From positions 16,525 through 80,524 of the IMG/VR virus record IMGVR_UViG_3300034418_008897: a stretch of DNA of 64,000 bases; one strand, given 5' to 3'. Source of the DNA: a virus. This document shows positions 802 through 63,293 of the stretch, piece after piece (the stretch's first letter is position 1; every line of letters begins with the position of its first letter). A program made the position numbers and the translations under genes. Below the pieces are notes generated by a model. The model saw only the letters and a program-made list of their open reading frames with translations, had not been told where the DNA came from and ran no database searches.

Positions 802-3800
802 TTATTGATAATCTTGTGCGTAATTTCCAAATAAATTAATACCATCATAATAAAATACAATAGTATCAATAGCAAATGGACTTGTAGTAATAGTAGGTGC
901 TGTACCTCCTGGCCATTTAACAGAACCTCCTGATACTATATAAGTTCCAATATCTACAAAGTTTGCTGATTTTTGAATAACCTTTAAGAAGTAAGTTCCA
1001 CCTGATTGCATATTAGTGAATGTTAAAATTATATTTGCTGTAGCATTAGTCAAATCTAACACCATACTGTTACCGTTATCACAATTAAAAGTAGCAAGGT
1101 TAGTTGTTACTCCTGTAGAGTGTTGAGGAGAATAGAATTGACCATCACTTCTAACATTACCACCAAACCTATTAAGCTCAGAACCTACTTGGTATACACC
1201 ATAAACATTAGTTGCTGTACCTTGAATACTAAAAGGCTCTATTCTAATACCTGAAACTGTACCTACAGTATCTCCTGAAGAGACTCTTAACATTCTAATA
1301 TGGAAACCATTTGCAAGACCATGATCGTATTGAGTAGCAAAGTCTAATGAATACCCATTTAATGAATCTGAAGTAACGTTTAAAAAACTACCTGTAACAG
1401 CGTGTATTGATGAAAATGCACCTTTAACTGTAGGTTGTGCAGTTAAACTTAATTGAGACTTTATAGGTGAATATAATCTTGTTGCCAAATCATTATCAGA
1501 AACAAAACCTGAAACTTGAAAAGTTTGTTTAGAACCACCTGTATGAACACCTATATTCTTAGATATAAGAACTCTATCTCCATCATCCTGCATTATTCCA
1601 TTTACTAAAGTATTAGTAGTTGAATCCCATTTAGGAATTACATTTGCAGTATAACTACCAACGAGTGCATAACCTGCTGTAGAGTGGTCTCCCCAACCGT
1701 ATGCTATATCCCATTGACCTACTTTAGGATCTGTAATAGTATTAACACCCATGTCAATATTAAACAAGTTAGCATCTAATGTACCACCTAATTGTGGGGT
1801 TGTATCATCTATTAAGTTAGACATACCACTAACTGCAGGTGTTTGCCAAGAAGCGTTACCGTTTGAATCAGAAGTAAGGACTTTTCCTGCTGCCTGTAAA
1901 CCATCAACTAATTTAAGAGAGTAAGCGTTTCCTGAACCACCGTTTGAAGCTTCAAAATATCCGCCAACATTATCAGATGAACTATCAATAGAAACTATTG
2001 AGTAAACACCATATTGCTTATTAGTTACACCTGTAAAAGTACCTGTAAGTGAAGATAAGTATCCAATATTAGAATCAGCTACACCATAACCGTTTCCAAT
2101 ATTTGTAACAACACCATTAATTGTTGTTGTAGAAGCAGTTGAAAGACCATACAATTGGAAAGCAGCACCTGTTACAATAGAAGTAGTTGAAGAACTACTT
2201 ATATGTAAACCTACTTGCTTAGATGTAGAAGCAAAAAGCACCGTACCTGGCGAAGGGGCTGTTCCATCTAAACCAATATTACCTAATCCATTATCTCTAA
2301 TAGAGCCACTCTCTAAAGTATTTGTAGTACTGTTCCAACGTGGAACGCGAGTGTCTGAGTAAGTACCTACCTTAGCGTAAGTTCCTAAATCTGTAACATC
2401 AGCCTCTGTAATATCTGCCCAATTAGCTTTACCATCTGACGTAACAGATTTTAAAAACTTACCTATTCCTTGCGTACCATCACTTAATCTAACTGAATAA
2501 GGATTAGTACCATTAGCTATAAATACACCACCAACGTTTTCAAGAGTAGACCCTGTAGCTACGGCAACTATACCGTTATTTGTACCTGAATTAATTCCTT
2601 GAGTAGATAATTGAAGAGCAGAAGCATTTGATCCCCCTGAATAAGAATTTATATTATACTGTGTGAACTGTAAAGGACTTGATATTCTTAAAGTGTTATT
2701 TGCATCAGGACTTACATTGATACCTAATGTTGTACCATTATCTCTAATTAATGAATCACCTAATGTACTTCCATCAGGAGTCCATCTAGCGACATAATTA
2801 TTAGTGCCTGAACCTTCTGTAAAAGTATTTGTTGTTAAATATGTATGTTGTGCATTTGTTAAATGAAAATATTCTCCACCAGTCCCACCTTGTATCCCTG
2901 AAAGATCATTATGAGCAGTTACATTTGTCGATTTAAATACTAAATCAAATGCAGAATCTACTGATACAGGAGAACTATTTCCTTGTTGACAAATTACTCT
3001 ACCAACAAGTATAGTATGTGATTCTACTAATTCAGGTATAGAAGGAGAAGCTTCTAATTCGGCCGCAGCTAAAGAGTTATGTTCTTGTCTACCTATAACT
3101 TCATATAAATGACTACCAGATTCTATACCTTTATAATACCAATTTGTTACATATTTACCAGAACCTAATGCAACTAGATTAGTTCCATTATCGTAATTAG
3201 TGTTATTAGCAATTCCTGATCCTGCCCCAGTTACAGTTCTATCCCATACTCCTGCTGTATGATAATTAGAAAAAAGAACATCATCCCAGCTATTAATTGC
3301 TGGTGTAATTTCTCTATTAGCGCCATTCCAAATATCTCCAGCAGCAATATTTACTTGAAGTGGGTCATTACCACCTGTAGTTATTCCTAAGCCACTAGCC
3401 CTTTCAAATTTATTAGTTTCATATATTCTATGTAATAATTTATTACTTAAACCAGAACCTTCAAATCCCCAGTCTAAAATATGTAAAAAATTACCTGCTC
3501 TATATAATGTTATATATTTTGCTCTATCTGATCTATTATAATCAGGCTCTGATGTTGTAATAACCCATTGTGGAGACCCTAAATTATAATCTAAATATAT
3601 ATAATTTGTTGATTCATCAGTAAGAGCAGTTAATTCAGTGCCTGTTGTACCACCTGCAACTGTATAATTATTAGCAACTCCTGTCCAATTTTGATCGTTA
3701 TAAAGAGTAACATCTACCGTAGGTATAGTAAGAGTACCATCTAAATTATCTGTCCATGTAGAACCAGTATGCAAAATACCATTCGACCCTAAACCATTAA

Positions 3801-49599: not shown

Positions 49600-50110
49600 T
49601 GTATAAATATAAAGTTATATAGCAAATATTTCCGTAAAAGCAAAGAAAAATCCGCAGTGTAATATAGGTACTTGTAGAAAAAGCCCCCCCGGTAGTAGAG
49701 TAAAAAGAAGAAGAGTAGAAAATAGAAGTTGCAGAAAAAGAGGGGGGGGTAAGTTGAAAAATAGTGAAAGTTGGAAATAAAACAGAGAGGGAAGGGCTAG
49801 TCGTCTTGTCCCCCCGGCGGGCGCTTTGCGGGGGTTTGGTTCGTTGCTGCCGCGGCTCGTTATTGGGCGGGGGGTTACTTTCACGGTCCTGGTGATGGGG
49901 GCACTGCTTTCATCTTCGGCCTTGTTATCGTATTTAAGTTAACTTTGCTTGCTAGCGTGTCCGCTGCTGCGCTTGGCTCTCTTCTGCGTTTGGGTTCTAC
50001 TCGTCCGACCTCTCTAGGGGGTAGCCTGGTGTTGTCTTATTACACACGAGGGGGGGGGTGCCCTAGAGTTTTATTATGCCTAGATAACGGGCTTGGTACG
50101 TTATTATAAC
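49600..50110. other. Divergent strand-switch region, GC-rich; candidate genome terminus, origin or early promoter region
   Basis: Transcription flips from minus to plus; C7, G8 and G9 homopolymer tracts; abrupt change in base composition. Confidence 0.5.
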
Positions 50111-50187
50111 AACAACAACCAGAGCTGTATGGTTTTACAAGACACAATAGCTTAGTGAAAATCTTGTTTATTTAAAAAATAAAGAAA

Positions 50188-50514
50188 ATGACAACAACAA
50201 ACAAAAAAGGTTATTCTTGGGTAGATTGCCCAACTTTAACAGAAAGAATCGACAGATTAAGAGAGCAAATCAAAGCCGGAGAATTTGTGTATACAGGTAG
50301 TAGAATACACCCTACTACAAAGCATGAGATATTCCATGCTATAAAACCTAGTACAAGATTTATGATAAGATTCACTTTTAAATTTAATAGTGATGGTGAA
50401 AAGTATTGTAATTGGTTCGCTATGATCGGGTCAACAAAGGAGCAGGAACAATTTCTAAAAGAAGTTGGTCATGAAGCGTACCAGGAGTACCAGTCTAAAG
50501 AAATAGATTGGTAA
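50188..50514 (+). CDS. Early hypothetical protein
   Basis: 108 aa, A-rich leader, first gene after the switch. Confidence 0.65.
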   Translation: MTTTNKKGYSWVDCPTLTERIDRLREQIKAGEFVYTGSRIHPTTKHEIFHAIKPSTRFMIRFTFKFNSDGEKYCNWFAMIGSTKEQEQFLKEVGHEAYQEYQSKEIDW

Positions 50515-50583
50515 TATCTAAAAATCAAAGCATGTCCGTACCAGACGGGGCTGAGAAGTGCTGAAAGCCAATCTGTTATTTAC

Positions 50584-50631
50584 TAACAACCTTAGATGGG
50601 TGTAAAGGTTAAACCATCACAAAATATTATG
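50584..50631 (+). repeat. Leader pseudoknot repeat, copy 1
   Basis: AACCTT/AAGGTT crossed with GATGG/CCATC; ends 10 nt before the ATG at 50629. Confidence 0.75.
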
Positions 50632-50787
50632 GAAAGAATATTTCGGTTGCAAATTACAAGAACAGCAATCTCAAACCCTGAATGGGTTGAAATAGTAGCT
50701 GCTTCTGAAACAGAAGCACAAACTAAATACTATTCAATGAACCCAACCCACTTCATTATTTGGACTATTGATTCTTTAAATGAGTAA
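50629..50787 (+). CDS. Early hypothetical protein (probable start MERIF)
   Basis: ATG at the same offset from the repeat as in copy 2. Confidence 0.55.
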   Translation: MERIFRLQITRTAISNPEWVEIVAASETEAQTKYYSMNPTHFIIWTIDSLNE

Positions 50788-50804
50788 CTTTGTAAATTAA
50801 ATAT

Positions 50805-50852
50805 TAACAACCTTAGATGAGGGTATAGGTTAAATCATCACAAAATATTATG
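50805..50852 (+). repeat. Leader pseudoknot repeat, copy 2
   Basis: AACCT/AGGTT crossed with GATGA/TCATC; ends 10 nt before the ATG at 50850. Confidence 0.75.
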
Positions 50853-51182
50853 GAAGTAATTAATTTAACACCGCATGCTATTAAAGTAGTAGGTAAAGAT
50901 GGCGAAAGAGTTTATCAACCATCAGGATTGGTAGCTCGAGTAGAGCAATCTGTTGTAGAAACAGGTGATTATATAGATGGGTTCTCAGTGAGCCAATCTG
51001 TATTTGGAGATATAGTAAATCTCCCAGCACCTCAACCTGGGGTGTACTATCTAGTGTCAGCTATGGTTTTAGGGGCTTTGGCTGGCTCTAGAAGTGATGT
51101 AGTAGCACCTAAGACGGATGCTACGGCCATAAGAAATGAGAAAGGCCATATAGTGGCTGTTAGAGGTTTCTTAAAATATTAA
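50850..51182 (+). CDS. Conserved phage protein (INLTPH...PSG.VARV family)
   Basis: INLTPH, LPAPQPGVYYLVS and RNEKGHIVAVRGF motifs. Confidence 0.65.
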   Translation: MEVINLTPHAIKVVGKDGERVYQPSGLVARVEQSVVETGDYIDGFSVSQSVFGDIVNLPAPQPGVYYLVSAMVLGALAGSRSDVVAPKTDATAIRNEKGHIVAVRGFLKY

Positions 51183-51229
51183 AAAATTACTAATTTAAAG
51201 CTGACCTATCGGCATGACGGGGAAATTAT

Positions 51230-51502
51230 ATGGAATGCATGGAAGATATAAATGACGCATTTGCGTCAGGTTTATTGTTTTTCCCTAAAACTTCTGACGA
51301 AGAATGGGAAAGAAGAAGGATTGAGTCAGAAGAAAGACTCAAAGAGTATAAAAAGACGGAAGGGCAGGTCCGTCATATAAAAAAAGGTAACTATTGGTTA
51401 CCGATTATAATCATGGAAGTAAAAGCTTACCATGAAGTAATAATAAAAATAATTGCAACGAAAGAAGTAAAAACAGTTGCATTTTACGAAATAAAATACT
51501 AG
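51230..51502 (+). CDS. Early hypothetical protein
   Basis: 90-aa ORF in the early gene run. Confidence 0.55.
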   Translation: MECMEDINDAFASGLLFFPKTSDEEWERRRIESEERLKEYKKTEGQVRHIKKGNYWLPIIIMEVKAYHEVIIKIIATKEVKTVAFYEIKY

Positions 51503-51509
51503 TAAAAGT

Positions 51510-51719
51510 ATGGATAAATTGTATTACGTGTATTTTAACACTGGATCTCTTGCCCCCATGTGGGTTAAGAAAAACGAAAGTTTTGCTGCTAAACTGAACA
51601 GTATAGTTGGAAAAGATAAACAGAATGAAATTACTTCGGTAGAATTAATAAAAACTTCACCGAGTATAAGTAAAGAAGTTTTAGACTCATTATTTAATAA
51701 ACCATTAAACAATAATTAA
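51510..51719 (+). CDS. Early hypothetical protein
   Basis: 69-aa ORF in the early gene run. Confidence 0.55.
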   Translation: MDKLYYVYFNTGSLAPMWVKKNESFAAKLNSIVGKDKQNEITSVELIKTSPSISKEVLDSLFNKPLNNN

Positions 51720-51720
51720 G

Positions 51721-52014
51721 ATGAACAATATATCAAAACAAGAAACTGAACTAAAAGCAATAGGCTTAGATTTAAACCTAAATTACGTAAACAATAGCGT
51801 AATAATAGTGAAAGGCCATAAAATAGTAGCGCCTGAAGAATGTATAGTGCGAGCTATACAATTAAAAATAAGAGAAGGGGAATTAAAACCACAAGACGTC
51901 GAGCTATACGACAATAAGAAAAGGATAGAAATCAGACCAGATGGTATGATAAAAGAAAAATTAGAATCAAATTTTTATCAACTTAGTGCTAATTTAGCAT
52001 TTAAGTTATTCTAA
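51721..52014 (+). CDS. Stand-alone DUF3696-like protein
   Basis: RAIQLKIREGELKPQDVELY...IEIRPDG.I......FYQ resembles the C-terminus of defence-associated ABC/AAA ATPases. Confidence 0.45.
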   Translation: MNNISKQETELKAIGLDLNLNYVNNSVIIVKGHKIVAPEECIVRAIQLKIREGELKPQDVELYDNKKRIEIRPDGMIKEKLESNFYQLSANLAFKLF

Positions 52015-52031
52015 AACAAATAATTAAATAT

Positions 52032-52080
52032 TAACAACCCTAGATGATAGTATAGGTTAGATCATCACAACAACAACATG
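52032..52080 (+). repeat. Leader pseudoknot repeat, copy 3
   Basis: AACC/GGTT crossed with GATGAT/ATCATC; ends 11 nt before the ATG at 52078. Confidence 0.75.
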
Positions 52081-52605
52081 AGAGTACCAAATTATGAATT
52101 GTATTTAGGCTTGCGAAGCGAGCTAGACGGTAGAATTGCTATAGGTGGTTCTACTGCACTTGTAGTTAGAGGTGAATTACCTGCTGACTACAAACCAGGA
52201 GATCTGGACTTGTGCATTGAGCACGAGATCCAACTAAGCATTATAGATACTTACCTGACCCAAAGAGGTTGGGAAATGTCTATAGACATACCAAATGGTA
52301 ATGCCTTTACTGTTAGAAGGCAATACAAGCTGGATGGAGAGAAAGTAGATTTCTTCATCATACCTGACTTAGACCGTTGGGTAGATTACATGGACGGAAA
52401 CGTTTATGTTAAGCCCCAAGTTATATGGGCCGCGCGTGGTTATTATGCTGGCGTAGGCTCAGACAAAGCCCAAAACCAACTAGTAAAGAATGGTATGATT
52501 AGGCCATTTGTACCCAACTCAACCCCTAACTCAAAATTGACTAAGAGACAAGTAATACGCCGTATTATCGGCGATGTTAAACACTTAATTAAGAGTATAT
52601 TATGA
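52078..52605 (+). CDS. Nucleotidyltransferase-fold protein
   Basis: IGGSTAL..RG...PGDLDL...KVDFF (GS / DxD / D pattern). Confidence 0.7.
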   Translation: MRVPNYELYLGLRSELDGRIAIGGSTALVVRGELPADYKPGDLDLCIEHEIQLSIIDTYLTQRGWEMSIDIPNGNAFTVRRQYKLDGEKVDFFIIPDLDRWVDYMDGNVYVKPQVIWAARGYYAGVGSDKAQNQLVKNGMIRPFVPNSTPNSKLTKRQVIRRIIGDVKHLIKSIL

Positions 52606-52901
52606 AAAAATTAATGATGACGGTGCTACTAAAGTCAGTAGCTAATCTTTCACCTGATAAATATAAGGTGGGAGCTATCTATGTTCAAGGCTGGAGAATC
52701 AGCTTTGGATATAATACTAGTAGAGATTACGGTAGTCATGCAGAGGACATGGCTATTCGTATGTTCGAGAAGCTCTACAAGCCCAGAGCACAAAAAGGAA
52801 CTATGTATTGTACATGGTCTCCATGTTCTGTATGTGCAAAGAATCTCTTTAACCTAGGTATAAGGCCTTGGTATTTAGATCGATACACTGGCAAACTCTA
52901 A
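52602..52901 (+). CDS. Minimal cytidine/dCMP deaminase-family protein
   Basis: KVGA..., GYN, HAE and SPCSVC zinc motifs. Confidence 0.8.
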   Translation: MKKLMMTVLLKSVANLSPDKYKVGAIYVQGWRISFGYNTSRDYGSHAEDMAIRMFEKLYKPRAQKGTMYCTWSPCSVCAKNLFNLGIRPWYLDRYTGKL

Positions 52902-52963
52902 ACTCGTCTGAGCGAGTATAAATAGGCTTTAGGCTCAGAGCGTCCCACTTCGGTGGGGGTAGT
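52902..52963 (+). ncRNA. Pistol self-cleaving ribozyme
   Basis: P1 ACTCG/CGAGT; loop TCTGAG pairs with CTCAGA; ATAAATAG linker; P2 GCT/AGT; TTAGG; GCG; P3 TCCCAC-TTCG-GTGGGG; GT cleavage dinucleotide at 52959-52960. Confidence 0.9.
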
Positions 52964-52985
52964 ATTAATTTAAAATTTAAAAGTT

Positions 52986-53273
52986 ATGTTAGTAAGAGAA
53001 AAATGTGATCAAGAAATGATCAGGATTGCGGATCAAGAAATGGGATTCGCTATTAATCCCAAAAATGGTGTCTTTGCGGACACTGAACAAGAGGGACAAG
53101 ACCTAGAAGCATTATATGCTGAGGTGCAAAGAGTTAAGGAGACTTGCAGATGCTGGACTCCGAGTAATAAGGAAGGTGTTAGTTGCTACACTGAACTAGG
53201 AAAAGGCAATATCATAATAGTAGAAGATCAAGGGTATGTAGGTATCTTCTACAACAACTATTTATTCATTTAA
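52986..53273 (+). CDS. Early hypothetical protein
   Basis: 95 aa; leader TAAAATTTAAAAGTTATG shared with the next gene. Confidence 0.6.
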   Translation: MLVREKCDQEMIRIADQEMGFAINPKNGVFADTEQEGQDLEALYAEVQRVKETCRCWTPSNKEGVSCYTELGKGNIIIVEDQGYVGIFYNNYLFI

Positions 53274-53289
53274 TTAAAATTTAAAAGTT

Positions 53290-53496
53290 ATGAAAACAAG
53301 AAGACCAAGAATTAATCAAGAAACAAAAGTAGAAAGAAAGATAGAATTTTCTACTAGATTTGCAAAAGACAAAAACCCTAACTGGGATAAAAATATACGC
53401 TCTAAAGAAGGAGAGCGTAAAGTAAAAGCTAAACCAACGCCGCAAGATAAATGGGCTGAGTTTAAAGCTTTTGCAGCAACAGAATTAAATTATTAA
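53290..53496 (+). CDS. Basic hypothetical protein
   Basis: 68 aa; same leader as 52986. Confidence 0.55.
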   Translation: MKTRRPRINQETKVERKIEFSTRFAKDKNPNWDKNIRSKEGERKVKAKPTPQDKWAEFKAFAATELNY

Positions 53497-53513
53497 TTAA
53501 ATTAACAAATAAG

Positions 53514-53651
53514 ATGAAGAAAATATTATTAGAAAATGGTACTGTAAAATACGGTATACAATACTATCGTGTGTTAGAGTTAAAAGAAAATCAAGTATTA
53601 TTAATGATTAGTAAAAAACCAACTTGGGTTGATATTAAAGAATTAAACTAA
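53514..53651 (+). CDS. Small hypothetical protein (45 aa, MKKILLENG...)
   Basis: Translated by hand; below the ORF-track size cutoff. Confidence 0.45.
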   Translation: MKKILLENGTVKYGIQYYRVLELKENQVLLMISKKPTWVDIKELN

Positions 53652-53667
53652 TCAACTAACCTATCAC

Positions 53668-53724
53668 CTTAGTCTTCCTTTCTTCCTCGCCTTAGTCTTC
53701 CCTTCGTCGGAGTCTTCCCTTCGG
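53668..53724 (+). repeat. Pyrimidine-rich triple repeat AGTCTTCC(C/T)TTC
   Basis: Three copies upstream of 53798, followed by the hairpin CGTGAGAC-A-GTCTCACG. Confidence 0.6.
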
Positions 53725-53797
53725 CCTCGCGGTTTTTTGGCGTGAGACAGTCTCACGTGTAGTATATTATTTTTTTAAACTTTTAAATTTTTAGATT

Positions 53798-54280
53798 ATG
53801 TTAAAGATTAACAGACAAGCAGCATTAAAGCAGTTCAGAACTCAATCAGCGAAAGGCTTAAAATTAGAGCCAGGAACTGAGATTAGTGTTATGGAAGTAC
53901 GTGAGAACAACAACGAGGATGGTTCAGTGACTCACTCTTTAATCTGTTCAACAGATAAATCACTTGTGATTAACATCTCTTTATCTGATTACTTCAAAAT
54001 GGGAGTGGTAAACAATGGATCTCATTACACTTCAGAGGAAGGTGATGAGGACATCGAGATCTTCCAATCGTTCACTATCGAAACGGCAGAAGACCGTAAA
54101 GATAGAAACGGTGACTTAGTTTATCCTTTATATGCTTATGAAGGATGGGACGAGATGAGAGATGAAATCAGAGCAGGTAATGCTAAATTCGATTGGAATG
54201 CTCTAATTGAATCAGGATTGAAAGAAGGTATTACAGACCGTATCAGTCCATTACAAGATTATACTATCAAAATCGGATAG
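53798..54280 (+). CDS. Probably highly expressed acidic protein, possibly ssDNA-binding
   Basis: 160 aa; ATC/TTC/AAC codon preference like MCP; own terminator; function is a guess. Confidence 0.45.
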   Translation: MLKINRQAALKQFRTQSAKGLKLEPGTEISVMEVRENNNEDGSVTHSLICSTDKSLVINISLSDYFKMGVVNNGSHYTSEEGDEDIEIFQSFTIETAEDRKDRNGDLVYPLYAYEGWDEMRDEIRAGNAKFDWNALIESGLKEGITDRISPLQDYTIKIG

Positions 54281-54290
54281 TATTACACTC

Positions 54291-54330
54291 ATATGGGGTA
54301 GCATAGAAATATGTTACCCTATATTTTTTT
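54291..54330 (+). terminator. Intrinsic terminator
   Basis: ATATGGGGTAGCATA-GAAA-TATGTTACCCTATAT followed by a T run. Confidence 0.8.
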
Positions 54331-54407
54331 AAAGGGGCTTATGGCTAATAACCCGATCTAGCTCTATAATTATTTTTTTTTAAACCATTAATAGTAAATA
54401 ACCCGAT

Positions 54408-54644
54408 ATGGCAACAATAAAACACAACTTTAAAGGTAATTTTGAATTCCCTTTATACAATCAACACGAAATTAAAAGTATTTTAAATGATATCAATGCA
54501 GATATCAGAGAAGTAGAAGAAGATATTAATCATTATTCTCTTATAGGAGATATGGAAAATGAGATGAATTGTTTAGAAGAATCAGTTGTATTAAATTGCG
54601 TTAAGTACGACTATGAAGAATTACTTCAAGCAGCTTTAAATTAA
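54408..54644 (+). CDS. Acidic hypothetical protein
   Basis: 78-aa ORF. Confidence 0.55.
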   Translation: MATIKHNFKGNFEFPLYNQHEIKSILNDINADIREVEEDINHYSLIGDMENEMNCLEESVVLNCVKYDYEELLQAALN

Positions 54645-54651
54645 TTATGTT

Positions 54652-54816
54652 ATGAAAAATTTTTTTAAAAGTGCTTTTGCATTGTGCCTATATGTTATTA
54701 TAGGCTCTTTGCTATTAGCGTATAGGTTTTCAGATAGTAGTTTAGCTGTAGAGATATTTACAGTAATAGCTATAGTATATTTAATATTGCTACCTAGTTG
54801 TAGCACAAAAAATTAA
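54652..54816 (+). CDS. Small membrane protein (54 aa, two hydrophobic segments)
   Basis: Translated by hand: MKNFFKSAFALCLYVIIGSLLLAY... Confidence 0.45.
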   Translation: MKNFFKSAFALCLYVIIGSLLLAYRFSDSSLAVEIFTVIAIVYLILLPSCSTKN

Positions 54817-54822
54817 AAGATT

Positions 54823-55038
54823 ATGTTAGAATTAATTATATCAATAGGTTACTTCTTAGGTATAGGTTATACTATAGAAGATTACAGTAGTGTTAACGGT
54901 AATTATGTAAATGATTTTAAATCTAGACTAGGTTTAGTTATATACATTTCATTTGTATTTTTATATTCACCTGTGTTTTTATTAATAGATTTAGGTAGAT
55001 TATTATATAAATTAAACAGTAAAGAAGATGACAAATAG
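54823..55038 (+). CDS. Small membrane protein
   Basis: Two hydrophobic segments. Confidence 0.55.
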   Translation: MLELIISIGYFLGIGYTIEDYSSVNGNYVNDFKSRLGLVIYISFVFLYSPVFLLIDLGRLLYKLNSKEDDK

Positions 55039-55411
55039 AGAAGAATATGCAAAATTTGCAGAGAAGCACCCTAACAGTGTAACAATTAGAGCAGCAGTTA
55101 TAAATCATTCTGTAGAAGATTATATTGCTGGACACACTATGAATTTAGTTGTAGTGTATGAAGATAATCACGGTAGTGTGGTTTTCTTAGACCCTTACTG
55201 CGGTGTAGCAGACATTTTAAATTGGGATGGTAATGAACCCCTAGCTTTTAAAGACAATGAAGATATTAAACCTTTTTTGTCTAAATGTATGTTAGATTTT
55301 AACATTCAAGACCCGGCTTTTACTAAAATTTACAAGAGCTTAAATTTCTTTGATGAGCATTTTGAAGCTCCTATAAACTTCGAAAGGTATGGGGTTGTAG
55401 AAGTAGAGTAA
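55028..55411 (+). CDS. Hypothetical protein
   Basis: 127-aa ORF overlapping the previous stop. Confidence 0.6.
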   Translation: MTNREEYAKFAEKHPNSVTIRAAVINHSVEDYIAGHTMNLVVVYEDNHGSVVFLDPYCGVADILNWDGNEPLAFKDNEDIKPFLSKCMLDFNIQDPAFTKIYKSLNFFDEHFEAPINFERYGVVEVE

Positions 55412-55452
55412 TAACTTGAGGGAGATACGTCTCCCTTTTAAATTTAAAAATT

Positions 55453-55647
55453 ATGAGAGAGACTTTATTTTTCTTAGCGTATTTAGCTTTTCTATTAGCT
55501 ATATTATATTTTACTTTCGTATCCTTTAGTTGGATGATGTTAGCTATAGCAGCTTGTTTAGCTATATTATGTTTAGCAGCAATAATTAATCTTTTACTAC
55601 CCAAAACAACTAACGTTTTTAAATACTTTTTACGTAATAAAAAATAA
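55453..55647 (+). CDS. Small membrane protein (two TM segments)
   Basis: Long hydrophobic stretch with a basic C-terminus. Confidence 0.55.
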   Translation: MRETLFFLAYLAFLLAILYFTFVSFSWMMLAIAACLAILCLAAIINLLLPKTTNVFKYFLRNKK

Positions 55648-55734
55648 AAGTATGAATGAAGAAGAAAGAAACAAAGAACTAGATGACAAAGAAGGTTGTA
55701 TAATGATTTTTATAACGTTATTTACCCTTTTTAT

Positions 55735-55766
55735 TTTGTGGTTAGCTAGTAACTTGTATAAATTTG
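55735..55766 (+). promoter_or_regulatory. Possible Bacteroidota primary-sigma promoter
   Basis: TTTG-N20-TAAATTTG matches the -33/-7 consensus; chance matches are likely in AT-rich DNA. Confidence 0.35.
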
Positions 55767-56213
55767 TATAAATTGTTGGTTTATAGATTGTTGTTGTTGT
55801 TTTAAAATTTAGAGTGGGGGTCGCACGGTGTGTAAATCCCCCTCTTTAAATAAAATAAACTCTTCAACTTTATATAAAATATATAATATTAATATATATA
55901 AGCAACGTCTACATAACGTGCCACACTACTGCACTAACAAGACAGTAGCACACACAAATAATTTTATTATTTTGTATACTATAAGGCCATACGCCTTTTT
56001 TATATATAATTATTTTTTAAAAAAAGTATAAAATATGGTTAAATTTAGAGTAATATTGATACCGATAGTAAGGTTAAATGAAGATGACTCTGCTGATTAT
56101 AAAGAGTGGAGAGAAGTAGAATATCGTAGTGCGAAGGAAGCGTTAGATGATTTAGAAAAAGATTATTTAGTAGTAAATATAGAAAGAATAAAATAATTAT
56201 TAAAAGTAAAAAT

Positions 56214-63167: not shown

Positions 63168-63293
63168 AGTCAGGTGGCGGAATTGGTAGACGCATGAATA
63201 AAGGTTAATAGTAAAGATAACGAAGAGTAACCTTGAGATACCCGTAAAGTCAGCTCATAAGTTATCATATAGGTTCGAATCCTGTCCTGACTA
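63168..63293 (+). ncRNA. tRNA-like RNA with Leu-type D arm and no canonical anticodon arm
   Basis: AGTCAGG/CCTGACT acceptor; TGGCGGAATTGGTAGACGC D arm; ATAGG-TTCGAAT-CCTGT T arm; 75-nt branched insert between the D and T arms. Confidence 0.75.

Follow-up and report, generated by a model that had tools for sequence, protein, structure and literature searches.

Identity and structure of the ribozyme at the deaminase-to-ORF95 junction

A canonical pistol ribozyme lies between a cytidine/dCMP-deaminase-like gene and a 95-aa open reading frame (ORF95) in the genome of a freshwater phage, and the same junction differs among four related phages, a comparison which is new here: one carries the pistol, one a hammerhead-type element, one a broken pistol, and one a small ORF only. 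In the window, i.e., the whole 64-kb stretch of DNA that was analysed, the pistol is intact, both flanking genes are on its strand and it would probably cut their common transcript and uncouple the two halves of the operon.

Positions 52902–52964 of the plus strand are a pistol ribozyme both by family and by structural elements. When both strands of the 64-kb window were searched, the Rfam model for pistol (RF02679, gathering score 34.5 bits) matched this region with 74.3 bits (E 1e-11), and the alignment covers model positions 1–68 of 68, i.e., the full length. All highly conserved (upper-case) positions of the RF02679 consensus are identical in the window, and the conserved nucleotides of the A-rich linker, of UUA-GC and of GAGCGU are intact relative to the Rfam consensus. 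The elements, all on the plus strand, are:

52902–52964, plus strand: pistol self-cleaving ribozyme with the canonical order of elements, from the match to RF02679
52902–52906 with 52913–52917, plus strand: P1 hairpin (52902–52917) of 5 bp, ACUCG/CGAGU, from the sequence
52907–52912, plus strand: P1 loop UCUGAG, which is the 5′ strand of the pseudoknot and complementary to 52934–52939
52918–52925, plus strand: linker AUAAAUA (52918–52924), which fits the consensus AUAAAuA, followed by G52925
52926–52928 with 52961–52963, plus strand: P2 of 3 bp, GCU/AGU, from the sequence
52934–52939, plus strand: 3′ strand of the pseudoknot, CUCAGA, 6 bp, from the sequence and covariation
52943–52948 with 52953–52958, plus strand: P3 hairpin (52943–52958) of 6 bp with a UUCG tetraloop, from the sequence and RF02679
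52959–52960, plus strand: predicted cleavage site G52959/U52960, aligned to the GU junction of RF02679
52960–52985, plus strand: A/U-rich leader of 26 nt from the cut to the next ATG, from the sequence

Just two nucleotides, G52959-U52960, separate P3 from P2, as is the rule for pistols, where this junction is usually GU; P2 is flanked by a G52925/A52964 mismatch. The initial annotation had read a canonical pistol with each element in this order and had suggested a search with the Rfam model as a check; the sequence and the full-model match, well above the cut-off, bear this reading out. It had also placed the element at 52902–52963, where the start is correct and the end is one base short, as the Rfam match reaches 52964. 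Its predicted cut between G52959 and U52960 falls on the GU junction of the Rfam model, and its two statements on spacing hold: the deaminase stop codon TAA occupies 52899–52901, directly ahead of the first base of the pistol, and the next ATG is at 52986, so that a leader starting with U52960 has 26 nt. Folding without pseudoknots gave z = −2.18 and merged the P1 and pseudoknot strands, which is expected for such a calculation and is not a guide to the true fold. No second or permuted pistol core was found in the 64-kb window, and neither the window nor the other 16.5 kb of the 80.5-kb record contains another known ribozyme.

The element might be a chance resemblance or an inactive relic, and such relics do exist, e.g., the pistol with a 15-nt internal deletion in the related locus L051 described below. 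An E-value of 1e-11, a full-length match to the model and zero deviation at conserved positions make this exceedingly improbable for the window pistol.

Pairing and short P2 across pistols

The secondary structure is supported by an alignment of the window pistol with 29 pistols from IMG/VR (n = 30). Across P1 and the pseudoknot 98.5% of cells are paired, and both sides have changed in 9 of 11 pairs; for P1 these values are 100% and 4 of 5 pairs, and for the pseudoknot 97.2% and 5 of 6 pairs. Not one of 500 shuffles reached the pairing observed for the whole structure, and in a control where the partner strand was slid by 1–3 columns only 23–45% of cells were paired. A19–A21 and G24 are invariant in all 30 pistols.

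It is conceivable that a P2 of only 3 bp with a neighbouring G/A mismatch could reduce the stability of folding. The pistols of L003 and L018/L019 have the same short P2 next to a G/A mismatch, and that of L021 has it next to a G/G mismatch; all of them score 67–76 bits, and as it is shared with such high-scoring pistols, the short P2 is no anomaly of the window pistol.

The carrier phage and the surrounding genes

The record, IMGVR_UViG_3300034418_008897, is 80.5 kb long and estimated to be 65% complete. The GC content is about 25–36%, and in the pistol region 31–36%. A minus-strand block at 1–49600 encodes a major head protein, a portal protein and a large terminase (PHROGs), and the best named relatives of the terminase are crAss-like phages with 21–35% identity; the carrier is an uncultured, distant crAss-like freshwater phage. 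A plus-strand block starts at about 50188 and consists of tightly packed small ORFs, nearly all without an assigned family. The genes around the pistol are:

52078–52605, plus strand: ORF of 175 aa without a Pfam or PHROG match, from the ORF call, with a 4-nt overlap with the start of the deaminase gene
52602–52901, plus strand: cytidine/dCMP-deaminase-like gene of 99 aa with HAE and PCxxC motifs, from Pfam PF00383 and phrog_174
52986–53273, plus strand: ORF95, 95 aa, without a Pfam or PHROG family, from the ORF call

That the upstream neighbour is a deaminase, as had been proposed, is confirmed by dCMP_cyt_deam_1 (PF00383) with E 1.1e-14 and by the dCMP deaminase family phrog_174 with E 5.8e-10. 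The gap between its stop codon and the pistol is 0 nt, and a spacer of 21 nt separates the 3′ end of the pistol from the ATG of ORF95. No Shine-Dalgarno-like motif is present in the 26-nt leader (52960–52985), and no intrinsic terminator was called at the pistol by a terminator scan, so the reading of the pistol as an intrinsic terminator is unsupported. The crAss-like layout, together with the lack of Shine-Dalgarno motifs in the leaders, suggests that the block may be expressed early and that the host may belong to the Bacteroidota.

DNA of this phage is present in several freshwater metagenome runs, and a search for RNA runs with the locus gave no match. Contigs of the same phage from four freshwater runs have an identical pistol and only 3–4 differences per 1.8 kb, a divergence too low for them to say anything on selection. 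The additional depth at 52904–52958 in these runs is due to other pistols in unrelated contigs. A search of a phage collection with positions 50000–56000 gave no near-identical DNA, and a search of IMG/VR with the 99-aa deaminase as query gave no relative.

The surroundings of the pistol have several features of their own. A 38-nt motif, AACAACCYUAGAUG...GGUUARAYCAUCACAA, is present in three plus-strand copies in the operon of the pistol (50585–50622, 50806–50843, and 52033–52070); it can form an H-type pseudoknot, and the copies end 6–7 nt before an ATG. It had 0 matches in shuffled sequences and no Rfam match at E ≤ 5, and 52037–52069, in the third copy, has a 97% identical counterpart at 1376–1408 of L051. 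Within the 175-aa ORF, 13 differences are clustered in the 75 nt of 52204–52278 when contigs of other freshwater runs are compared, and elsewhere in 51800–54000 these contigs differ at few sites; the patch may be hypervariable or recombinant. Further downstream, a plus-strand gap of 146 nt (53652–53797) holds three CCUUAGUCUUCC-like repeats and then a GUGAGAC/GUCUCAC hairpin with a T-run, and 53694–53743 is 88–90% identical in L049 and L051, above the conservation of the flanking genes. The gap might serve as a terminator/promoter or as a binding region for a protein. Between the two gene blocks, the divergent region (49640–50070) has several runs of 7–10 G or C and is far richer in GC than the rest of the genome. 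Finally, a tRNA-like gene at 63168–63293 (plus strand) has a Leu-type D arm, a T arm and an acceptor stem, and a 66-nt insert replaces the anticodon arm; it scores 36.2 bits with the Rfam tRNA model and was not called by ARAGORN.

Placement of pistols in other IMG/VR phages

A strict core pattern retrieved 29 IMG/VR contigs, in which 41 pistols were confirmed by Rfam. Neighbouring ORFs were called mechanically (at least 40 aa) and are uncurated, and some of the 41 pistols are near-duplicates; read with this in mind, an upstream ORF on the same strand ends between −10 and +3 nt of the first base of the pistol in 24 of the 41. A start right after a stop codon is therefore a habit of the family, and in some IMG/VR pistols the upstream ORF terminates at the UGA within the P1 loop. 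A downstream ORF is present for 38 pistols, and in 23 of these its start lies no more than about 45 nt from the 3′ end of the pistol, mostly at 16–34 nt.

Pistols often occur in arrays, i.e., six in about 4 kb (L015, 306–4313), four in 1.5 kb (L004, 520–2051), three in L006 (359–2041), and two together with two twister-P5 ribozymes in L012 (2993–5135). Other structured RNAs were seen in the same collection: two unrelated viral contigs have a GOLLD RNA at about 0.3–0.8 kb from a pistol (L017, 3639–4054 and 4845–4907; L021, 1867–2241 and 2550–2616), and a third contig has a HEARO RNA (L005, 1073–1287) at a distance of about 3 kb from one. There are also short pistol matches of 50–58 nt and 47–55 bits (L031, 7069–7118; L027, 1607–1657; L026, 13378–13435; L024, 6282–6338), the 3′ part of which has no recognisable canonical P3; these may be variants or truncated copies.

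Variation of the junction among related phages

Loci of relatives were taken from IMG/VR and JGI metagenomes. Homologues of ORF95 are few and comprise 3 clusters plus the loci L002 and L048–L051; the homologues P0003 and P0002 have 86% and 91% identity. The junctions compare as follows:

Window and L048 (same strain): ORF95 100% identical; 63-nt pistol and 21-nt spacer
L049: ORF95 89% identical; ORF of 55 aa, no ribozyme
L051: ORF95 52% identical, deaminase region with 73% nucleotide identity; ORF of 92 aa, then a broken pistol
L002: ORF95 46% identical, syntenic over six genes; type II hammerhead, then an ORF of 107 aa

The pistol of L051 has lost 15 nt in an internal deletion, which comprises the end of the 3′ strand of P1, the whole linker and the 5′ strand of P2, and it goes undetected by Rfam. 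Little has changed in P3, in the GGU site and in the leader, the last of which is about 90% identical to that of the window. A detached 5′ half and a circularly permuted pistol were looked for in L051 and neither was found. As in the window, the counterparts of the 175-aa ORF and of the deaminase gene in L051 are two ORFs with a 4-nt overlap. The blastn identity between the window and L051 is about 71% for 52930–53149 versus 73% for the deaminase region, and the idea of a recombination island is weakly supported, the identity of about 90% being limited to a short segment that spans P3 and the leader.

The near identity of P3 and leader in L051, where the ribozyme core is deleted, could suggest that the element acts mainly as a structured RNA that does not cut, e.g., as a 3′ protective hairpin, as a site where transcription pauses or terminates, or as a translational insulator, and P3 is indeed a stable, GC-rich hairpin with a UUCG loop in a region of 31–36% GC. 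P3 is however not followed by a U-run, the terminator scan makes no call, and all positions of the catalytic core are conserved in the window, which would be needless for a mere hairpin. We consider such a non-cutting function very unlikely.

In L002 the place of the pistol is taken by another element:

L002 3576–3639, in the 86-nt gap after the deaminase stop: type II hammerhead-type element, from its anatomy

The order of its parts is CC, GAAA at 3578, stem III, GUC ending at 3604, stem I, CUGAUGA and GG, and the predicted cut is after 3604. CUGANGA, GAAA, the A15.1-U16.1 pair and a non-G at position 17 are all present in the core. Stem I has 6 bp and stem III 10 bp, both closed by loops, and stem II, which is open, has 2 bp (CC/GG). 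A pseudoknot of 5 bp between GAGCA in loop I and UGCUC in the 3′ tail has a probability of about 0.04 by shuffling of the tail. A descriptor for the type II architecture gave a single match in 806 kb, which is the L002 site, compared with a mean of 0.1 in shuffled sequence. The Rfam model RF02276 did not match the element even at E ≤ 10. It also misses both copies in L065, and it gives 35.7 bits for L053 and 36.8 bits for one of the four in the L057 record, where the cut-off is 37; because the model also misses the L065 copies, its failure in L002 is not taken as disproof, and the element is judged to be hammerhead-type by anatomy and not by Rfam. The core pattern is found in at least 120 IMG/VR contigs, and among 134 matches examined stem II has 2–5 bp in 129 and a pseudoknot of at least 5 bp between loop I and the 3′ tail is present in 40. 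A type II hammerhead architecture of that kind has been described (Perreault et al., 2011, PMC3088659).

The L002 element starts 2 nt past the deaminase stop codon and ends 21 nt before an ATG, which is the distance between pistol and ATG in the window. The gene that follows is distantly homologous to the gene that opens the block in the window (50188–50514; E 2e-8). The two genes ahead of the junction may be organised differently: the 175-aa ORF and the deaminase both align to one mechanically called ORF of 282 aa in L002 (2726–3574), which has a GTG start and an odd N-terminus. At its C-terminal end the 175-aa ORF of the window has about 40 additional residues, for which L002 has no equivalent. 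The pistol is absent from 16 contigs with a TerL 68–88% identical to that of the window, which are fragments of 4–38%; L002, which is also a TerL relative and has no pistol, is the only one of these relatives that covers the homologous region, so that the absence carries little weight.

From the hammerhead in L002, the broken pistol in L051 and the lack of a ribozyme in L049 it follows that the function of the ribozyme at this junction is replaceable and dispensable, and not essential. An active pistol might even be a passenger of the turnover of gene cassettes that came in with an exchanged module, or marks its edge, and is of little or no benefit to the phage. The junction behaves as a hot spot, since four relatives have four contents (a pistol; a 55-aa ORF; a 92-aa ORF with a broken pistol; a hammerhead with a 107-aa ORF), and the 55-aa ORF of L049 and the 92-aa ORF of L051 are unrelated to each other. 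In addition, L049 and L051 have 92.5% identical deaminase ends and yet differ in ORF95, which indicates mosaicism, and many unrelated contigs from the same lakes match the pistol core only. On the other hand, the fact that L002 has a second and unrelated class of ribozyme in this place speaks for selection on cutting at the boundary and against hitch-hiking, every core nucleotide is intact in the window pistol, and the placement throughout the family, with a stop codon, the ribozyme, a leader of about 20–30 nt and an ATG, looks functional. We therefore regard a mere passenger as an improbable, though not negligible, explanation. It is tempting to speculate, at similarly low odds, that the junction is a hot spot for cassette exchange, where pistol and hammerhead are interchangeable boundary modules that provide a cassette with its own 5′ end and leader instead of a promoter, and that the conserved cores shared by unrelated phages of the same lake serve as short homology for cassette recombination.

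Proposed function at the cistron boundary

Cutting of the co-transcript by an intact pistol, which is the reading that we prefer, may proceed as follows. The deaminase gene and ORF95 would be transcribed together. Once the polymerase has passed 52964 the RNA would fold and, with Mg2+ alone, cut itself between G52959 and U52960. The upstream message, with the 175-aa ORF and the deaminase, would retain its stop codon and end in a pseudoknotted body of 58 nt with a 2′,3′-cyclic phosphate, and the downstream message would start with a 5′-OH and an unstructured, A/U-rich leader of 26 nt. As the 3′ product is held by no more than three P2 pairs, it would leave fast, and the cut would be effectively irreversible. 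Ends with a 5′-OH or a cyclic phosphate slow the end-dependent nucleases of bacterial RNA decay. The two halves of the operon would then probably no longer be coupled in their stability and translation, with no need for a host nuclease.

The biochemistry of the class is compatible with such a scheme. Pistol cleaves by an internal phosphoester transfer within GU, the length of this junction is strictly conserved, and the rate has been estimated at about 10 to more than 10 min−1 at physiological Mg2+ (Harris et al., 2015, PMC4604425). Ribozymes that flank phage genes are active both in vitro and in E. coli, and the processing of long transcripts has been proposed as their role (PMC3088659), and the idea that processing leads to different stabilities or translation efficiencies has been restated (PMC6765202). 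Host-independent processing of the polycistronic mRNA, as the initial annotation suggested, would fit both this published hypothesis and the anatomy of the junction, i.e., genes on the same strand, a gap of 0 nt to the stop codon and a leader of 26 nt past the cut.

Relation to known systems and meaning

The window pistol shares with the pistol class (RF02679) the order of elements, the conserved nucleotides, the 6-bp pseudoknot, the 2-nt GU junction and the association with phage genes, and there is no structural difference, with P2 (3 bp and G/A) at the short end of the range. What differs is the carrier, here a distant crAss-like freshwater phage. The class was found near phage genes (Weinberg et al., 2015, cited in Harris et al., 2015, PMC4604425), and one pistol tested is from Alistipes putredinis (PMC4604425).

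The clustered hammerheads of prophages are likewise self-cleaving ribozymes between phage genes on the same strand; they have been proposed to cut long transcripts into gene-length mRNAs, and such arrays were found to cleave in vitro as well as in E. coli (Perreault et al., 2011, PMC3088659). The window has another class of ribozyme, and a single one per operon instead of an array. The haloviruses HF1 and HF2 have the hammerhead variant HHphage in an early polycistronic unit, where a start codon follows it after a few nucleotides and where a 5′ end has been mapped to within 3 nt of the cleavage site (PMC3088659). HHphage precedes the first gene of its transcript, whereas the window pistol sits between two cistrons. 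A synthetic counterpart also exists. RiboJ is an engineered insulator of the hammerhead type, derived from sTRSV, and it too is a ribozyme upstream of a cistron that strips off the upstream RNA context and leaves a defined leader with a 5′-OH. RiboJ is a product of engineering, whereas the natural role of the window pistol is deduced.

Publications already exist on the pistol class and its link to phage genes, on arrays of ribozymes, and on the processing hypothesis, which is the standard one for phage ribozymes (Perreault et al., 2011; Weinberg et al., 2019). On its own the window pistol is useful for annotation and unsurprising, and the modest additional value lies in the comparison. The role of the self-cleaving ribozymes of bacteria and phages is an open question (PMC6765202), and the four states of the deaminase-to-ORF95 junction amount to a small natural experiment that asks if a cut between cistrons makes a difference and how it affects the flanking genes. 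Any functional model must explain the rule, seen here and in most IMG/VR pistols, that a stop codon is followed by the ribozyme, a leader of about 20–30 nt and an ATG.
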